This document shows, in pieces, positions 58,542-64,000 of a DNA stretch of 64,000 nucleotides. The stretch is taken from the IMG/VR virus record IMGVR_UViG_3300042197_004918, positions 64,001 through 128,000 of that record. The stretch is one strand, 5' to 3'. The translations under genes and the position numbers were made by a program. The stretch comes from a virus. Below the pieces are notes generated by a model. It made no database searches. It saw nothing but the letters and a program-made list of their open reading frames with translations, and was not told where the DNA came from. Position 1 is the first letter of the stretch. The number at the start of each line of letters is the position of its first letter.

Positions 58542-59051
58542 ATGGACGAAGATGTGAGAGAATACGGTTGTTTAATGGCGTATATCGAACCGGCTTCTGC
58601 GAATAAAGTGGTGGAGCTTGGAAAAAAGATTATACCTCAATCAATTCTCTACGAGGTTCCTGGTGAAGAATATGGTAGAGAGACAGAACCTCACGTCACC
58701 ATAAAGTATGGTTTCACCCGAGATTTGACCGACGAAGAAGTAAAGAAAATCATCGGAAAAACAAAATCATTCTCCGTAGTCGCTGAAGGCCTAAGCACGT
58801 TTGATGGTAAAGAATTTCAAGTTGTAAAATTTGATATTCGCAGGGATGGGGTATTGTTATCCATGCGTAAGCTATGTGACGCATTTCCAAATAAAGACTC
58901 GCACCCCGACTTCCATCCTCACATGACATTGGCATACACAAAGCTAAAGTCATTCCCACACAAAAAGACCGGTCTATCTCTATCCTTTCGAGTAAACAAA
59001 TTTGTCTACTCTCCTATAACTGGAAAAAAGAGAGACTATAACCTATCTTAA
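58542..59051 (+). CDS. 2H phosphoesterase, Acb1/T4 gp57B-like
   Basis: two HxT motifs: EPHVTIKYG and FHPHMTLAY. Confidence 0.8.
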   Translation: MDEDVREYGCLMAYIEPASANKVVELGKKIIPQSILYEVPGEEYGRETEPHVTIKYGFTRDLTDEEVKKIIGKTKSFSVVAEGLSTFDGKEFQVVKFDIRRDGVLLSMRKLCDAFPNKDSHPDFHPHMTLAYTKLKSFPHKKTGLSLSFRVNKFVYSPITGKKRDYNLS

Positions 59052-59986: not shown

Positions 59987-60157
59987 ATGGATAATGCCCG
60001 CCTTAAAGAAATCGTCCTCAAGTTGATGGATGATAAGCAGAAATCTACTTTGGTATGTGACCACGGAGATTATAAAGTGATGTTCCCATACTGTATTATG
60101 CAGCATCTAAACGAATTGGAGGATCTTTATGCAGATGAAACTTCGCAAGAAAGTTAA
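59987..60157 (+). CDS. hypothetical protein
   Basis: ATG downstream of the promoter. Confidence 0.45.
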   Translation: MDNARLKEIVLKLMDDKQKSTLVCDHGDYKVMFPYCIMQHLNELEDLYADETSQES

Positions 60158-60335
60158 ACTTTACAATATCAAGGAACGTCCCGACGGAAACTGGAAACTA
60201 TGTCCACTTTGCGACTCGGAATTGGATTCTTGCCATATCGGAGTATTTTGTTCAAGTAAAAAATGTCGTTATGTAGATGGTATCGCTTTTTTGACCAAAG
60301 GCGAATACAAAAAATTTAAAGATAAAATCGAATAA
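60129..60335 (+). CDS. small Zn-ribbon protein
   Basis: CPLC..C....C. Confidence 0.5.
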   Translation: MQMKLRKKVKLYNIKERPDGNWKLCPLCDSELDSCHIGVFCSSKKCRYVDGIAFLTKGEYKKFKDKIE

Positions 60336-60373
60336 TTTAGCGGTTTTCAAAATTTCGTAATATGTATTGGATA

Positions 60374-60517
60374 ATGAACGTAGAATCGTATTTACCGTCA
60401 CTGTCTGTGTGGGCACCAGTTGCCCTCGGGAGTGCTGTATTGTCAGCCCCTCTCGGGTAACCTTTCTAACGGCATATCTTTACATAAGGACCGTTGGAAA
60501 AACTTCCAACGGTTTTT
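60374..60517 (+). promoter_or_regulatory. attenuator-like leader: 28-codon ORF, antiterminator arm and terminator
   Basis: ORF 60374-60460; terminator ACCGTTGGAA/TTCCAACGGT-TTTT; alternative pairing with TTCTAACGG at 60464-60472. Confidence 0.5.
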
Positions 60518-60546
60518 GACGTTTTTGGGATGGTTGAAGAAAGTAG

Positions 60547-60574
60547 TTGACGGATTTGAAAAGAAGTGTAAGAT
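60547..60574 (+). promoter_or_regulatory. sigma70-like promoter for the tRNA array
   Basis: TTGACG-16nt-TAAGAT. Confidence 0.5.
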
Positions 60575-60717
60575 AGTAACAGTTGAATTTGAAACAAGAC
60601 GTTCGGTTGAAACTCCGAACCGTAGAGGCAGAGTCTAAAAGACAGAGCCGGTCGGGCTAGTCCCGGTCACCACACGATAGGTCTGCCGACTAACCCCCGG
60701 AAAATAAAAGGGTCAAC

Positions 60718-60791
60718 GCGGGTATGATGTAATGGTAGCCTATAACTTTGCCAAAGTTGATGCGAGGGTTCGATTCCCTTTACCCGCTCCA
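60718..60791 (+). tRNA. tRNA-Gly(GCC)
   Basis: cloverleaf; loop TTGCCAA; GTTCGATTC; CCA. Confidence 0.93.
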
Positions 60792-60887
60792 GTAAATTGT
60801 TGTGTAAGTGGATTTAACCACCTTGACAACGGATATAAACCCCTTAACTGGGTTTTCCAATGTAGTCACAACGATTTATCAATTAAT

Positions 60888-60961
60888 GCGGAATTGTTGT
60901 AATGGTAGCGATTCTGATTTACACTCAGACAGAGGGGGTTCAATTCCCTCATTCCGTACCA
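60888..60961 (+). tRNA. tRNA-Val(TAC)
   Basis: TCTGA-TTTACAC-TCAGA; CCA. Confidence 0.9.
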
Positions 60962-61052
60962 ATTAATTTGTTAACAAAGAAAGCCGAAACCCTTCTGGTA
61001 TGGGAGCGTTTTTATCGGGGGTAAAAGTCCCAACTATCACCGCATTTTCAAT

Positions 61053-61129
61053 GGCCCCGTCGTCTAAGGTGGGTAGGACTTTTGATTCTCAATCAAAGAA
61101 ACTCGGTTCGACCCCGAGCGGGGCTACCA
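61053..61129 (+). tRNA. tRNA-Glu(CTC)
   Basis: TTTGA-TTCTCAA-TCAAA; CCA. Confidence 0.92.
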
Positions 61130-61217
61130 AATTTAAGGCAAAGCATCCTTTAATCCCAAACCGCACGTAAAGCGGGGATGGAAGCTTGACAGCTGGAGAG
61201 AAAGCACCAATTTTAAT

Positions 61218-61290
61218 GGTCGGCGTATGACACCTCTACAACGGGTTGCTCTGTTGAACAGTGAATAATTACGAGGATCCCCGGCCGCCA
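61218..61290 (+). ncRNA. 73-nt CCA-ending RNA with an acceptor-like stem but no T-loop
   Basis: GGTCGG/CCGGCC-GCCA; internal hairpin CAACGGG/TCTGTTG. Confidence 0.45.
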
Positions 61291-61386
61291 ACTTAAATCA
61301 CGGAAGTTAGGGTTCGAGGTCCTTGGGTCTTCTTGTAGGGAGGACACTTAATGTAAGTGGAAGCATACCGTGATTTGAAGTTTTTT

Positions 61387-61461
61387 GGGGGATTAGTGAT
61401 AATGGTAGCACGACTGATTTGCACTCAGTAGGTACTGGTTCGATTCCTGTATCCTCCACCA
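61387..61461 (+). tRNA. tRNA-Ala(TGC)
   Basis: G3-U70; ACTGA-TTTGCAC-TCAGT; CCA. Confidence 0.93.
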
Positions 61462-61462
61462 A

Positions 61463-61535
61463 CCGTTCGTAGGATAATGGCTATTCCGCCTGCTTTGGGA
61501 GCAGGATATTGTGAGTTCGAGTCTCACCGAGCGGA
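61463..61535 (+). tRNA. tRNA-Pro(TGG), CCA not encoded
   Basis: CCTGC-TTTGGGA-GCAGG. Confidence 0.9.
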
Positions 61536-61604
61536 CAGCGTAGCGCCGGGTTGGGTATTGCTCCAACGGTAATGTGTTAGTGTTAACGCCCGGCGGTCAC
61601 GTAT

Positions 61605-61678
61605 GCTCAAGTGATGTAATTGGAAAACATCTTTGTCTCAAAAACAGAGTTTTGTGGGTTCAACTCCCACCTTGAGCA
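61605..61678 (+). tRNA. tRNA-Leu(CAA), short variable loop
   Basis: TTTGT-CTCAAAA-ACAGA; A73 followed by CC only. Confidence 0.85.
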
Positions 61679-61680
61679 CC

Positions 61681-61760
61681 GTTCAGTTGATGAAAATCGT
61701 AGGGAAACATCTGGGACGAAAATCTCGGTTTTGTAGGTTCGACTCCTACACTGAACACCA
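61681..61760 (+). tRNA. non-canonical tRNA, 6-nt anticodon loop (CGAAAA; Phe-like GAA without U33)
   Basis: perfect acceptor GTTCAGT/ACTGAAC-ACCA; T-arm GTAGG-TTCGACT-CCTAC; enlarged D-loop. Confidence 0.7.
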
Positions 61761-61764
61761 TAAT

Positions 61765-61839
61765 GGTCACGTAGCCCAATTGGCAGGAGGCGCAACGTCG
61801 AGAACGTTGACAGTGTGAGTTCAAATCTCACCGTGACTA
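61765..61839 (+). tRNA. tRNA-Leu(GAG), short variable loop, C33
   Basis: CAACG-TCGAGAA-CGTTG. Confidence 0.85.
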
Positions 61840-61848
61840 CCGTATTTT

Positions 61849-61936
61849 GGGCAAGTATCCAAATGGTGAAGGAGACTGACTGTAAATCAGTTGCCATGTG
61901 CTAAACTTACAGGTTCGAGTCCTGTCTTGCCCACCA
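61849..61936 (+). tRNA. tRNA-Tyr(GTA)
   Basis: ACTGA-CTGTAAA-TCAGT; long variable region; CCA. Confidence 0.92.
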
Positions 61937-61978
61937 AACATCAAGCTCCCTTGAATTACACAACCTATGCATGGGTCA

Positions 61979-62132
61979 ACGAAATGGTGTATTAACCGAT
62001 TGGCTCGGTCGGCCTCTGATGTCTTTGATTTAAACAGACTAGCGTTTTCGGCTAGCCTGGCAGAGTGAGATAGATACCGTAGTAGGGCACGAGGCGGAGA
62101 ACATCAGTGAAATCCTCACAAAACCATTTCGT
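61979..62132 (+). ncRNA. structured RNA of unknown function (154 nt)
   Basis: perfect 10-bp terminal stem ACGAAATGGT/ACCATTTCGT; internal helices. Confidence 0.55.
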
Positions 62133-62141
62133 AAGTATAAT

Positions 62142-62219
62142 GGCTACGTAGCCCAATTGGAAGGAGGCGTCTCATTTAAAACGAGAACAGTGCAGGTTCG
62201 AGTCCTGTCGTAGCTACCA
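62142..62219 (+). tRNA. tRNA-Leu(TAA), short variable loop
   Basis: TCTCA-TTTAAAA-CGAGA; CCA. Confidence 0.85.
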
Positions 62220-62341
62220 TTTTTGATTTCGGGTGTATATGACACAACGAATTACGTATATTTGTGTCAAAATGTGGAATGGATTGGGCACGAAACTCCG
62301 AATTGCACTGACCAATCACACTCGAATTTTGAATCTATGTT

Positions 62342-62415
62342 GGGGCACGGTAGGCTCCGATGTAAGTAGAGGTCGCGGGTGGTGCCCTCGGATGGGTTCA
62401 AGTCCCAGACCACCA
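62342..62415 (+). ncRNA. tRNA-like RNA with a T-arm and ACCA end but no cloverleaf 5' half
   Basis: TGGG-TTCAAGT-CCCA-GACCACCA; GGGGCAC/GTGCCCT helix. Confidence 0.55.
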
Positions 62416-62423
62416 AATTTCAT

Positions 62424-62498
62424 AGGGATATAGCTCAATGGCGGAGCAACACAATGACATTGTGAAGGTTGCTGGTTCAAGTCCAGTTATCCCTACCA
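62424..62498 (+). tRNA. tRNA-Val(GAC)
   Basis: CACA-ATGACAT-TGTG; CCA. Confidence 0.9.
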
Positions 62499-62582
62499 GA
62501 TTGAAGAAAATTGTGCTAGATTTAAGCGGTAAACGTAACCGGCTCTCCTAAAGGAAGGGAAATTTTAAATCACTTCAACATT

Positions 62583-62741
62583 TTGTAGATGAGCGGTGGA
62601 GAAGTGCCACTAGAACATGAGTAGTGCGTAAATAGGTGTGTGATGTCCCGACAGTGGAATAAACGGAAACGGCCGTAACAACGGTGTAGCCGCCACGACG
62701 TAGAAAATACGCCATGAAGATTAAATTCTTTCCATCTACAA
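62583..62741 (+). ncRNA. structured RNA of unknown function (159 nt)
   Basis: perfect 9-bp terminal stem TTGTAGATG/CATCTACAA. Confidence 0.5.
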
Positions 62742-62750
62742 TCCCTTTAT

Positions 62751-62827
62751 GGTCACGTAGCCCAACGGCAGGAGGCGGGAGTCTTAGAAGCTCTACAGTG
62801 GGGGTTCAAATCCCTCCGTGACCACCA
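62751..62827 (+). tRNA. tRNA-Leu(TAG), short variable loop
   Basis: GGAGT-CTTAGAA-GCTCT; CCA. Confidence 0.88.
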
Positions 62828-63248
62828 TTTTGTTTTTTCTTCTCCAGTTTGGTGTTATGGAATGGCAATTAGGACATAGAAGTTTTAAGTTTTGGTTTTG
62901 ATTATTTTTCTTGTTTCCATCCACATGATGAACCTCAAGCGTTATTGGTTCTCCCAACCAATCCGCAGTCGAGCATCGTTCGCATTTTAATCCTCTCTCT
63001 TTAATGAGACAGTTTCTACGAGCGGTTGCGGAAGAATAATCTTCTAAAGATTTCAAAGATTTACCCTTATTCCACAGTTGATGTGAAAAATGACTTATAT
63101 CAAGATTCAATCGTTCAATATGAAGTTTAACGGACCCCTGAGTCCCGCCGGCTTGAACTAATCCAAGATTTTTCAAAACTTGACTATAAGCACGACTTTT
63201 GGAAACAGCAACTTTTAATTCTTCGTCTGAGTATGTTCTTTTTTTCAT
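62793..63248 (-). CDS. free-standing HNH homing endonuclease in the tRNA array
   Basis: CERC..LEVHHVDGNKKNN...NL.LLCPNCHS.T; N-terminal DNA-binding region. Confidence 0.9.
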   Translation of the reverse strand: MKKRTYSDEELKVAVSKSRAYSQVLKNLGLVQAGGTQGSVKLHIERLNLDISHFSHQLWNKGKSLKSLEDYSSATARRNCLIKERGLKCERCSTADWLGEPITLEVHHVDGNKKNNQNQNLKLLCPNCHSITPNWRRKNKMVVTEGFEPPL

Positions 63249-63304
63249 ATCAATAAATATGAAACGGTAGACGAATAACACAATATTTATGTGTCAACCA
63301 TTTT

Positions 63305-63548
63305 GAAAACGTGAGCGTGATAAAACGCAATGGGAACTAGACCACAACGAACCGGGAAGAAATGAAAGGTCGATAAACTATAGTTCTCATGTCGATTGAG
63401 GCGGTGCGATAATCCGATGGCGAGCGGACGCTCGTTGTGATTGGAAACAATCATACTATGGGGAACTAAGCGGTGATATATCACAAGGCACCCATAGCGC
63501 AGGGCCAGTCTTAGACACATACGGGTCCGAACCCCGTCGTTTTCACCA
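63305..63548 (+). ncRNA. 244-nt RNA closed by a tRNA acceptor stem, T-arm and CCA
   Basis: GAAAACG/CGTTTTC-ACCA; ACGGG-TCCGAAC-CCCGT; several internal hairpins. Confidence 0.75.
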
Positions 63549-63550
63549 TT

Positions 63551-63783
63551 TTGAAGTAGTAGGCTTAGAAGCAGCCATCTTTAATCAGCGAATCGAAACG
63601 CTGGCGACGACGCCTCCGTGCAACACCGACATTACGATTGGATGTTGTGAACGAGGTGATACATAAGAAGATATAGAGAGATAATAGTCTTGTGTATTGC
63701 CGTCCAGTATCTCCGCAGAAAGTAAACGGATACTCCGTAACTGGTAAGGTCCAATTATTCCTTGGCGTAAAAGCAGACTTCAA
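63551..63783 (+). ncRNA. 23S rRNA H43-H44 (uL11-binding/GTPase-associated centre) mimic RNA, copy 1
   Basis: GTAGGCTTAGAAGCAGCCATCTTTAA...GCGTAAAAGC inside the TTGAAGT/ACTTCAA stem. Confidence 0.75.
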
Positions 63784-63786
63784 TAT

Positions 63787-63861
63787 CCATCCGTCGCCTA
63801 ACTTGGTATGGCATCTCATTTGGGGTGAGAAATAATCTCGGTTCAAATCCGGGCGGGTGGA
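63787..63861 (+). tRNA. tRNA-Pro(TGG), second copy, CC only
   Basis: TCTCA-TTTGGGG-TGAGA; CTCGG-TTCAAAT-CCGGG. Confidence 0.88.
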
Positions 63862-63873
63862 CCTGATTAGAAG

Positions 63874-64000
63874 AAAGTAGGCTTAGAAGCAGCCATCTTT
63901 TAAAAAGTGACGAGTGGAAAAAGTATCTGTTGCAACAGAGAAATAAGCGTAACGGGTTTGTCAAGTCCCCGACGTATAACCACAGGGAATATAAATCCAA
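63874..64000 (+). ncRNA. 23S rRNA H43 mimic RNA, copy 2 (probably truncated by the window end)
   Basis: 25-nt exact repeat AGTAGGCTTAGAAGCAGCCATCTTT at 63876-63900. Confidence 0.65.

Follow-up and report, generated by a model that had tools for sequence, protein, structure and literature searches.

A long transfer RNA (tRNA) array in the genome of a large uncultured phage is best explained as an operon in which tRNA genes alternate with small folded non-tRNA RNA genes of 65-160 nucleotides (nt), each representing a family of its own. The array begins near the end of a 64,000-nt stretch of viral DNA, hereafter the window, which corresponds to bases 64,001-128,000 of the 173.8-kb IMG/VR record IMGVR_UViG_3300042197_004918 (G000; GC content 41.7%, CheckV completeness 49%). 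ARAGORN identifies 24 tRNAs, all on the + strand, from window position 60718 to approximately 72545 (window numbering continued past the window end), including one CUA suppressor. The finding concerns the first ~2 kb of this ~12-kb array, a segment with 11 tRNAs and eight spacers of 68-257 nt. A first-pass annotation had proposed that almost every spacer in this segment is a distinct structured RNA; most of them are indeed conserved, folding non-tRNA modules on the tRNA strand, but the stretches designated U4, S2 and S5 do not fit this description. Its estimate of about 10 non-coding RNAs agrees with a count of 9-11 modules, which are not proven RNAs. Coordinates without a genome prefix are window positions, and the units described below lie on the + strand, where U6 is also listed.

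The strongest evidence, decisive for most units, comes from comparison with related phages, of which approximately ten contigs were recovered. When G000 is compared with the relatives L039 or G001, pairwise identity is 0.34-0.62 at third codon positions of the flanking open reading frames (ORFs), 0.84-0.95 in the modules and 0.63-0.99 in the tRNAs. Across six genomes, 4-19% of third codon positions and 47-83% of first and second positions of the flanking ORFs are invariant, compared with 71-78% of all columns, and 64-82% of unpaired columns, in modules U2, U3, U5, U6 and U7. Because module conservation is far above that of third codon positions, these spacers are not junk. Purifying selection on the modules is as strong as that acting on codon positions 1 and 2 of the neighbouring proteins.

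Conservation extends to secondary structure, which was examined with RNAalifold, column-shuffle controls and pair counts. In alignments of related phages, seven modules (U1, U2, U3, U5, U5b, U6 and U7) gave consensus-fold z-scores of -2.5 to -4.0 with one to five doubly compensated pairs each, and broken cells made up 0-3%. Module helices are kept by compensatory changes, and the unpaired stretches are conserved too. For U1, U2, U3, U5, U5b and U7, the + strand folds better than the - strand. The absence of a convincing ORF, noted in the first-pass annotation, is borne out by one-base indels between relatives in U2, U5b, U6, U7 and U4R, which rule out coding; small ORFs in the modules were rejected on this basis.

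The best-sampled module is U2 (61292-61379), a cloverleaf-shaped RNA of 88 nt with an 11-bp terminal stem. Its consensus fold across nine distinct sequences (z -2.8) contains five doubly compensated pairs, with 2 of 243 cells broken. Inside are a T-loop-like hairpin that is invariant (AGGGUUCGAGGUCCU), a 3-bp stem capped by the conserved loop CUUGUAGGGAA, and a third, smaller hairpin; 28 nt of U2 form an invariant block. Folding energy is -20.9 kcal/mol on the + strand versus -9.1 kcal/mol on the - strand. A covariance model finds one copy per genome in every relative, even those with the smallest arrays, and no U2 paralogues were found. Two inner hairpins had been proposed for this module: CACTTA/TAAGTG is missing from seven of eight relatives, and GTCTTC/GAGGAC is conserved in its three lower pairs but not in the remainder. 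U3 (61538-61602) is a Y-shaped RNA of 65 nt, composed of a terminal helix and two hairpins, whose consensus fold (n = 8, z -3.6) has four doubly compensated and four one-sided pairs and no broken cells (0/184). It lies immediately 3' of tRNA-Pro(UGG) in six of eight genomes and immediately 5' of a tRNA-Leu in seven of eight. A 10-nt word that U3 shares with 5S ribosomal RNA (rRNA) was dismissed as chance (E 0.21), and the two topologies differ.

The largest module, U7 (62583-62741), is a multi-helix RNA of 159 nt with an invariant 9-bp closing stem (TTGTAGATG/CATCTACAA), supported by five doubly compensated pairs in six sequences (z -3.5; 3/264 cells broken), and its relatives differ by five one-base indels. 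U7 always follows U6, and a tRNA-Leu comes either directly after it or about 105 nt further on. U6 itself (62501-62578) is a 78-nt module with the invariant closing stem TTGAAG/CTTCAA, always found after tRNA-Val(GAC), and its consensus fold (n = 6, z -2.6) includes three doubly compensated pairs, with 4 of 132 cells broken. The 99-nt module U5 (62228-62326) has a 9-bp closing stem, within which the hairpins TGACACAA/TTGTGTCA and GATTGG/CCAATC are accompanied by long invariant unpaired stretches (n = 6, z -2.5; one doubly compensated and four one-sided pairs; 1/144 cells broken).

U5b (62336-62415) consists of a variable 5' hairpin, a conserved hairpin formed by GAGGUCGC...GUGCCCUC, a T-arm-like hairpin (UGGGUUCAAGUCCCA) and a 3' ACCACCA, with one doubly compensated pair in four sequences (z -2.5; 1/96 cells broken). 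Two tRNA-like folds were considered for this module and rejected. An acceptor/T-arm minihelix (GGUGGU/ACCACC) is broken in L047, and the competing hairpin is kept, with a G-U to A-U change in L045. A tRNA-Thr-like cloverleaf found by ARAGORN at relaxed thresholds is not conserved, its 5' strand falling in the most variable, indel-rich part of the module. U1 (60792-60879) is an 88-nt module with a 13-bp closing stem, carried only by G000 and L044, whose copy is 93.8% identical; the two sequences give a consensus z of -4.0 with one doubly compensated pair and 0 of 56 cells broken. U1 is an insertion in an 11-nt linker between tRNA-Gly and tRNA-Val (GTAAATTTAAT) that other relatives retain, and at the same site L045 carries a tRNA-Ser and another module. 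A further element overlooked by the first-pass annotation, S3a (61141-61216), comprises a hairpin at 61141-61187 followed by the invariant block GACAGCTGGAGAGAAAGCACCAATTT. In five sequences of 84-100% identity it shows two doubly compensated pairs, with a column-shuffle z of only -1.4.

Seven terminal stems had been described, from 60793-60804/60867-60878 at one end of the segment to 62583-62591/62733-62741 at the other, and all are present, with lengths of 12 (one G-U), 9, 7, 10, 9 (one G-U), 6 and 9 bp. They exceed shuffled controls: in 1257 nt of spacer, with loops of 30-170 nt, three perfect Watson-Crick stems of at least 9 bp were observed versus 0.25 expected (P = 0.0025), the expectation being 0.25 both for dinucleotide shuffles and for random pieces of the same genome. 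Single-sequence folding against shuffles gave a more divided result. Spacers 60792-60887 (z -3.1) and 61537-61604 (z -2.2) stand out, but the others range from -0.2 to -1.4, with 60962-61052 at +1.35. Calculated unit by unit, the single-sequence z-scores are -3.2 for U1, -2.4 for U2, -1.7 for U3, -2.2 for U5 and -0.1 for U6.

One of the seven stems, the 10-bp helix 61979-61988/62123-62132, is present in G000 but finds no support in relatives, being reduced to 6-7 bp in G001 and L039 and lacking its 5' partner in L040. The U4 region that it encloses is a composite of two modules. U4L (61979-62029) is 94-96% identical in sequence and has no fold support (z +0.25); U4R (62030-62132) is 80-87% identical, likewise without consensus-fold support (z -1.1, with 6 of 22 pairs broken). 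In G001 a tRNA-Met lies exactly between U4L and U4R, enclosed by the U4 stem, and in L040 U4R occurs alone, directly after a tRNA 3' end. S2 (60962-61052) is an unstructured spacer, with a comparative z of -0.2 (n = 3) beside its positive single-sequence value, and is restricted to the closest relatives, L044 and L045. S5 (61681-61760), a paralogue of the adjacent tRNA-Leu(CAA), looks like a tRNA in having a 7-bp acceptor stem, a good T arm and ACCA, but its anticodon loop has 6 nt (CGAAAA) and its D loop is oversized. The copy in L054 is 96% identical, with changes confined to the D loop.

The relatives were gathered by several routes. IMG/VR scans with a tRNA-derived pattern returned one of them, G001, and the invariant U2 core used as a query returned five metagenome contigs. 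For a 97-amino-acid (aa) protein whose gene lies just upstream, 38 clusters of homologues were found, and their contigs gave L044, L045, L047, L049/L050, L052/L053 and L054; more distant homologues of this gene are followed by no array or have an RNA ligase and a P-loop kinase nearby. The U2 core had no match in a separate collection of genome contigs, nor did a protein-pattern scan using a 68-aa ORF yield one, and with the GenBank phages searched the tRNAs were the sole shared sequence. A map of ten genomes shows that module order is fixed, with tRNAs, ORFs and other cassettes gained or lost between modules. Across the mapped genomes U3 is held between tRNA-Pro and tRNA-Leu, and U6-U7 after tRNA-Val(GAC). 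The modules hold their positions beside particular tRNAs while other cassettes, among them tRNAs, endonuclease genes and further modules, come and go.

The setting of the array is compatible with joint expression. A sigma-70-like promoter-like site (TTGACG-16-TAAGAT) is located upstream at 60547-60574 on the + strand, just after a strong intrinsic terminator at 60485-60518, and it probably drives the array. A search for a strong + strand terminator inside the array found none. Together, these features fit a single polycistronic transcript, as the first-pass annotation had suggested. The non-coding leader (60336-60717, ~380 nt) is 83-97% identical in eight relatives, a figure listed for 60520-60717. 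Directly upstream of each tRNA lies a short A/U-rich linker, 8-10 nt long after the terminal helices of modules, whose last base is T (U at position -1 of the transcript).

It is probable, on this analysis, that the modules are co-transcribed with the tRNAs, freed by tRNA processing and maintained as stable trans-acting small RNAs resembling RNAC and RNAD of phage T4. According to this model, the array would be transcribed from the promoter at 60547-60574 as a single precursor, RNase P would cut at the 5' end of each tRNA, all of which have U at -1, and each module would be freed once the tRNA before it had been trimmed at its 3' end. The closed terminal helix could then shield the module from 3' exonucleases and allow it to accumulate as a stable small RNA, as T4 RNAC and RNAD do. 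Since their loops are as conserved as their stems, the modules are expected to be more than inert spacers and to have a trans-acting role, in which they would bind particular proteins or RNAs of the tRNA or translation machinery. Their release is inferred from geometry, namely the terminal helices, the 8-10 nt A/U-rich linkers and U at -1.

Several observations weigh against this model. The alignments are shallow, with two to nine sequences that are mostly 80-98% identical, and the same program both chose the consensus structures and counted covariation. For U6 and S3a the opposite strand folds just as well, and most single-sequence z-scores of whole spacers are unremarkable and constitute weak evidence. 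The lack of fold support for U4 and S2 makes the claim that every spacer is structured too strong. In some relatives U2 and U5/U5b have no adjoining tRNA, so tRNA processing cannot be the sole route to their ends. In addition, no partner, target or known family was found for the modules.

Another way to account for the modules is as cis-acting processing or insulation elements, which would prevent tRNA misfolding, order the cuts of RNase P, RNase E or RNase III in the 12-kb precursor and then be degraded, with no function in trans. Their placement exactly between tRNAs, with uniform A/U-rich linkers, accords with such a role, as do the ties of U3 and U6-U7 to particular tRNAs, the lack of an encoded CCA in the tRNA-Pro preceding U3, and the fact that this phage itself encodes both a CCA-adding-type enzyme and an RNase P-like RNA. 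However, a stable helix would be enough for a simple insulator, whereas 64-82% of the unpaired columns here do not vary, compared with 4-19% at neutral sites. Relatives also manage with 11-nt Gly-Val linkers and abutting tRNAs, and U2 and U5/U5b persist without an adjacent tRNA. A purely cis-acting role is therefore considered rather unlikely. Decay of former tRNA genes, drifting neutrally after turnover of the array, would explain S5, which is plainly paralogous to a tRNA and whose anticodon loop is defective, and for that stretch alone it is true. This account can also point to the T-arm-like hairpin and ACCA kept by U5b, the cloverleaf shape and T-loop-like hairpin of U2, and the gain and loss of tRNAs between relatives. 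As a general account it is refuted and scarcely credible: the modules are much more conserved than neutral sites, non-tRNA helices are kept by compensatory change, the Rfam tRNA model misses the modules at E <= 1, and the relaxed cloverleaf of U5b relies on a variable, indel-rich 5' strand.

The first-pass annotation had itself suggested decoys or mimics of host tRNA or rRNA pieces, which would soak up defence nucleases and toxins or capture translation proteins. This idea draws on 18-25 nt in each of two RNAs of the same array, 0.8-1.1 kb downstream, with 96-100% identity to the L11/GTPase-associated centre of Escherichia coli 23S rRNA, on the tRNA-like parts of S5, U2 and U5b, and on a neighbourhood rich in tRNA repair or maturation genes; phage tRNAs are also known to counter anticodon nucleases (PMC10264068). 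What the neighbourhood offers is indirect support, to which the GOLLD RNA and RNase P-like RNA of the array, the CCA-adding-type enzyme, an RNA-ligase-like ORF and the syntenic 2H phosphoesterase also contribute. Inside 60793-62741, by contrast, similarity to E. coli rRNA on either strand is limited to chance words of 9-14 nt (E 0.2-0.8), no known family is matched, and U3, U5, U6 and U7 have no tRNA-like features. Mimicry of host RNA is consequently regarded as distinctly improbable for these modules. Equally doubtful is a broader version, in which the whole 12-kb array would be a phage RNA toolkit whose small modules are purpose-built mimics, decoys or ligands of host defence, translation and processing proteins, released by tRNA processing and cassette-swapped along with host defences. 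Stable trans-acting RNAs of the T4 type thus remain the preferred reading.

Searches against catalogued families support the description of the modules as new. The covariance-model search of Rfam (60000-64000, and S7 alone) matched only tRNAs, which places the modules in no catalogued family. At E <= 1 the Rfam tRNA model (RF00005) found just the 12 annotated tRNAs, in agreement with ARAGORN defaults. At relaxed thresholds ARAGORN additionally reported S5, whose anticodon loop has 6 nt, and drew a poor cloverleaf for U5b; the modules do not qualify as tRNAs. The transfer-messenger RNA (tmRNA) model (RF00023) scored 13.4 bits, and 5.3 bits for the U5b T arm alone, against a 47-bit threshold, and the ARAGORN tmRNA option found none in the 174-kb record. 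Rfam hits to tmRNA, a BMV (brome mosaic virus) pseudoknot and DicF were set aside as noise. No GOLLD or ROOL RNA (RF02032, RF03087) was detected in 60000-64000, and the recovery of GOLLD elsewhere in the same array indicates that the GOLLD search itself works. The hepatitis delta virus (HDV) ribozyme family likewise had no Rfam hit in 60000-64000. An HDV-like descriptor, too permissive to exclude such a ribozyme, matched 547 sites in the array versus 316-416 in control regions, a modest excess, with no canonical P1/P1.1 candidate at a tRNA end. The proposal that the units are mutually distinct is upheld by BLAST against the 174-kb record, in which each finds only itself, except the tRNA-like S5; the tandem repeats of ~36 nt typical of ToxI-type (type III) antitoxins are absent. 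A search of the phage record for antisense targets returned chance words only. In location and structure the modules match the T4 RNAC/RNAD type, an operational class rather than a homology family: they are folded RNAs other than tRNAs, and their genes lie within a phage tRNA cluster and on its coding strand. Like members of that class, they would also be made from the common precursor and accumulate as discrete stable RNAs.

Other RNAs are encoded in and around the array. A genuine GOLLD RNA (RF02032; score 211 bits, threshold 150 bits, E 3e-59) is located ~9 kb downstream at G000:135925-136352 (+), or window ~71925-72352, in the same tRNA array, ending 7 nt before tRNA-Ser. An RNase P-like RNA of 243 nt at G000:128581-128823 (+), ~580 nt past the window end, starts 5 nt after tRNA-Glu(UUC), is 82-94% conserved in G001 and L039, and scores 34 bits against the 84-bit threshold of RF00373 (RNaseP_arch; E 6e-7); it may represent a minimal RNase P RNA encoded by the phage itself. 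Two non-tRNA RNAs flanking a tRNA-Pro each contain a stretch resembling the L11/thiostrepton GTPase-associated centre (GAC) at positions 1062-1086 of E. coli 23S rRNA, one of 18 nt (63562-63579) with 100% identity and the other of 25 nt (63880-63904) with 96%. The suppressor tRNA with anticodon CUA is at window ~71027-71101 (G000:135027-135101). Reading TAG as sense lengthens open frames no more than reading TGA or TAA as sense, and there is thus no sign of genome-wide TAG recoding.

Bacterial tRNA-Leu normally has a long variable arm. Four tRNAs with the Leu anticodons CAA, GAG, UAA and UAG (61605-61680, 61765-61841, 62142-62219 and 62751-62827) are 76-78 nt long and have no such arm, and tRNA(GAG) has C at position 33; the amino-acid identity of these four tRNAs is uncertain. 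Where G000 has a normal tRNA-Tyr, two relatives (L040:3820-3913 and L035:3460-3553) carry an unusual tRNA-Tyr-like gene missed by ARAGORN. Its acceptor stem has 8 bp and its GUA anticodon sits on an extended stem; it has a good T arm and CCA but no D arm. Among protein-coding genes, an HNH endonuclease gene (62793-63281, - strand) lies antisense inside the array, its 3' end overlapping tRNA-Leu(UAG), and parallels segB in the T4 cluster. Upstream of the array, a 2H phosphoesterase of the 2',5' RNA ligase/LigT family (58542-59051, + strand; 39.6 bits), with weak similarity to Acb1, is found at the same place in all close relatives. Downstream of the neighbouring 97-aa gene, one distant relative has genes for an RNA ligase and a P-loop kinase. 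G000 additionally encodes a PolyA_pol/CCA-adding-type nucleotidyltransferase (G000:153549-153971, 72 bits) and an RNA-ligase-like ORF (G000:163060-163599) whose 25.4 bits fall slightly below the cut-off.

Phage tRNA clusters are usually read as tRNAs separated by junk spacers, but in this array the spacers are under constraint equal to that on the adjacent proteins. At least seven uncatalogued structured RNA families probably share a single operon with rRNA look-alikes, an RNase P-like RNA and a GOLLD RNA. These are concrete families that can be aligned, U2, U3 and U7 above all, and they could be used to build covariance models, to map metatranscriptomes and in binding experiments. If the partners of these RNAs prove to be host defence or translation factors, the modules would represent an RNA-based layer of phage counter-defence.

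Among known systems, murid herpesvirus 4 releases a viral non-coding RNA via tRNA processing enzymes. Viruses of this type carry tRNA-like genes (PMC2888160), but they are eukaryotic viruses with RNA polymerase III units and hairpins that become microRNAs; the likeness is one of concept, and no homology is expected. Theta ribozymes are small, minimal HDV-like structured RNAs that abut the 3' ends of tRNAs in phages and take part in the maturation of those tRNAs (PMC10879173). A CUA suppressor tRNA is present in this phage too, but the supported module folds are simple nested junctions and the HDV family gave no Rfam hit. GOLLD and ROOL are phage and prophage RNAs that often occur beside tRNAs and may be co-transcribed with them (PMC5737381); at 400-800 nt they are far larger than modules of 65-160 nt, which match neither model.

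The nearest parallel is phage T4, in which one ~1.75-kb precursor contains eight tRNAs, the species I and II RNAs and segB (PMC2330249). Species 1 corresponds to rnaC (139 nt) and species 2 to rnaD (119 nt); both RNAC and RNAD are real RNAs whose function is unknown (PMC3014915, PMC9697503). The two systems share non-tRNA structured RNAs within a phage tRNA cluster, as well as an endonuclease gene, a homing endonuclease in T4 (PMC2330249) and an HNH gene here. When folded in this analysis, T4 RNAC shows paired ends and a 3' T-arm-like hairpin, like U5b. The modules nevertheless have no sequence similarity to T4 rnaC or rnaD, for which blastn-short yields only a 12-nt chance word. Whereas T4 places two RNAs at the end of an eight-tRNA cluster, the present array, known from sequence alone, interleaves at least seven families, approximately one per spacer, that are shuffled as cassettes. 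The kind of element is already known from T4 and from GOLLD and ROOL near tRNAs; the families described here are uncatalogued, and in number and cassette behaviour they exceed what T4 shows. In this way, the half-century-old puzzle of T4 RNAC and RNAD is widened from two RNAs to a diverse, cassette-exchanged class.

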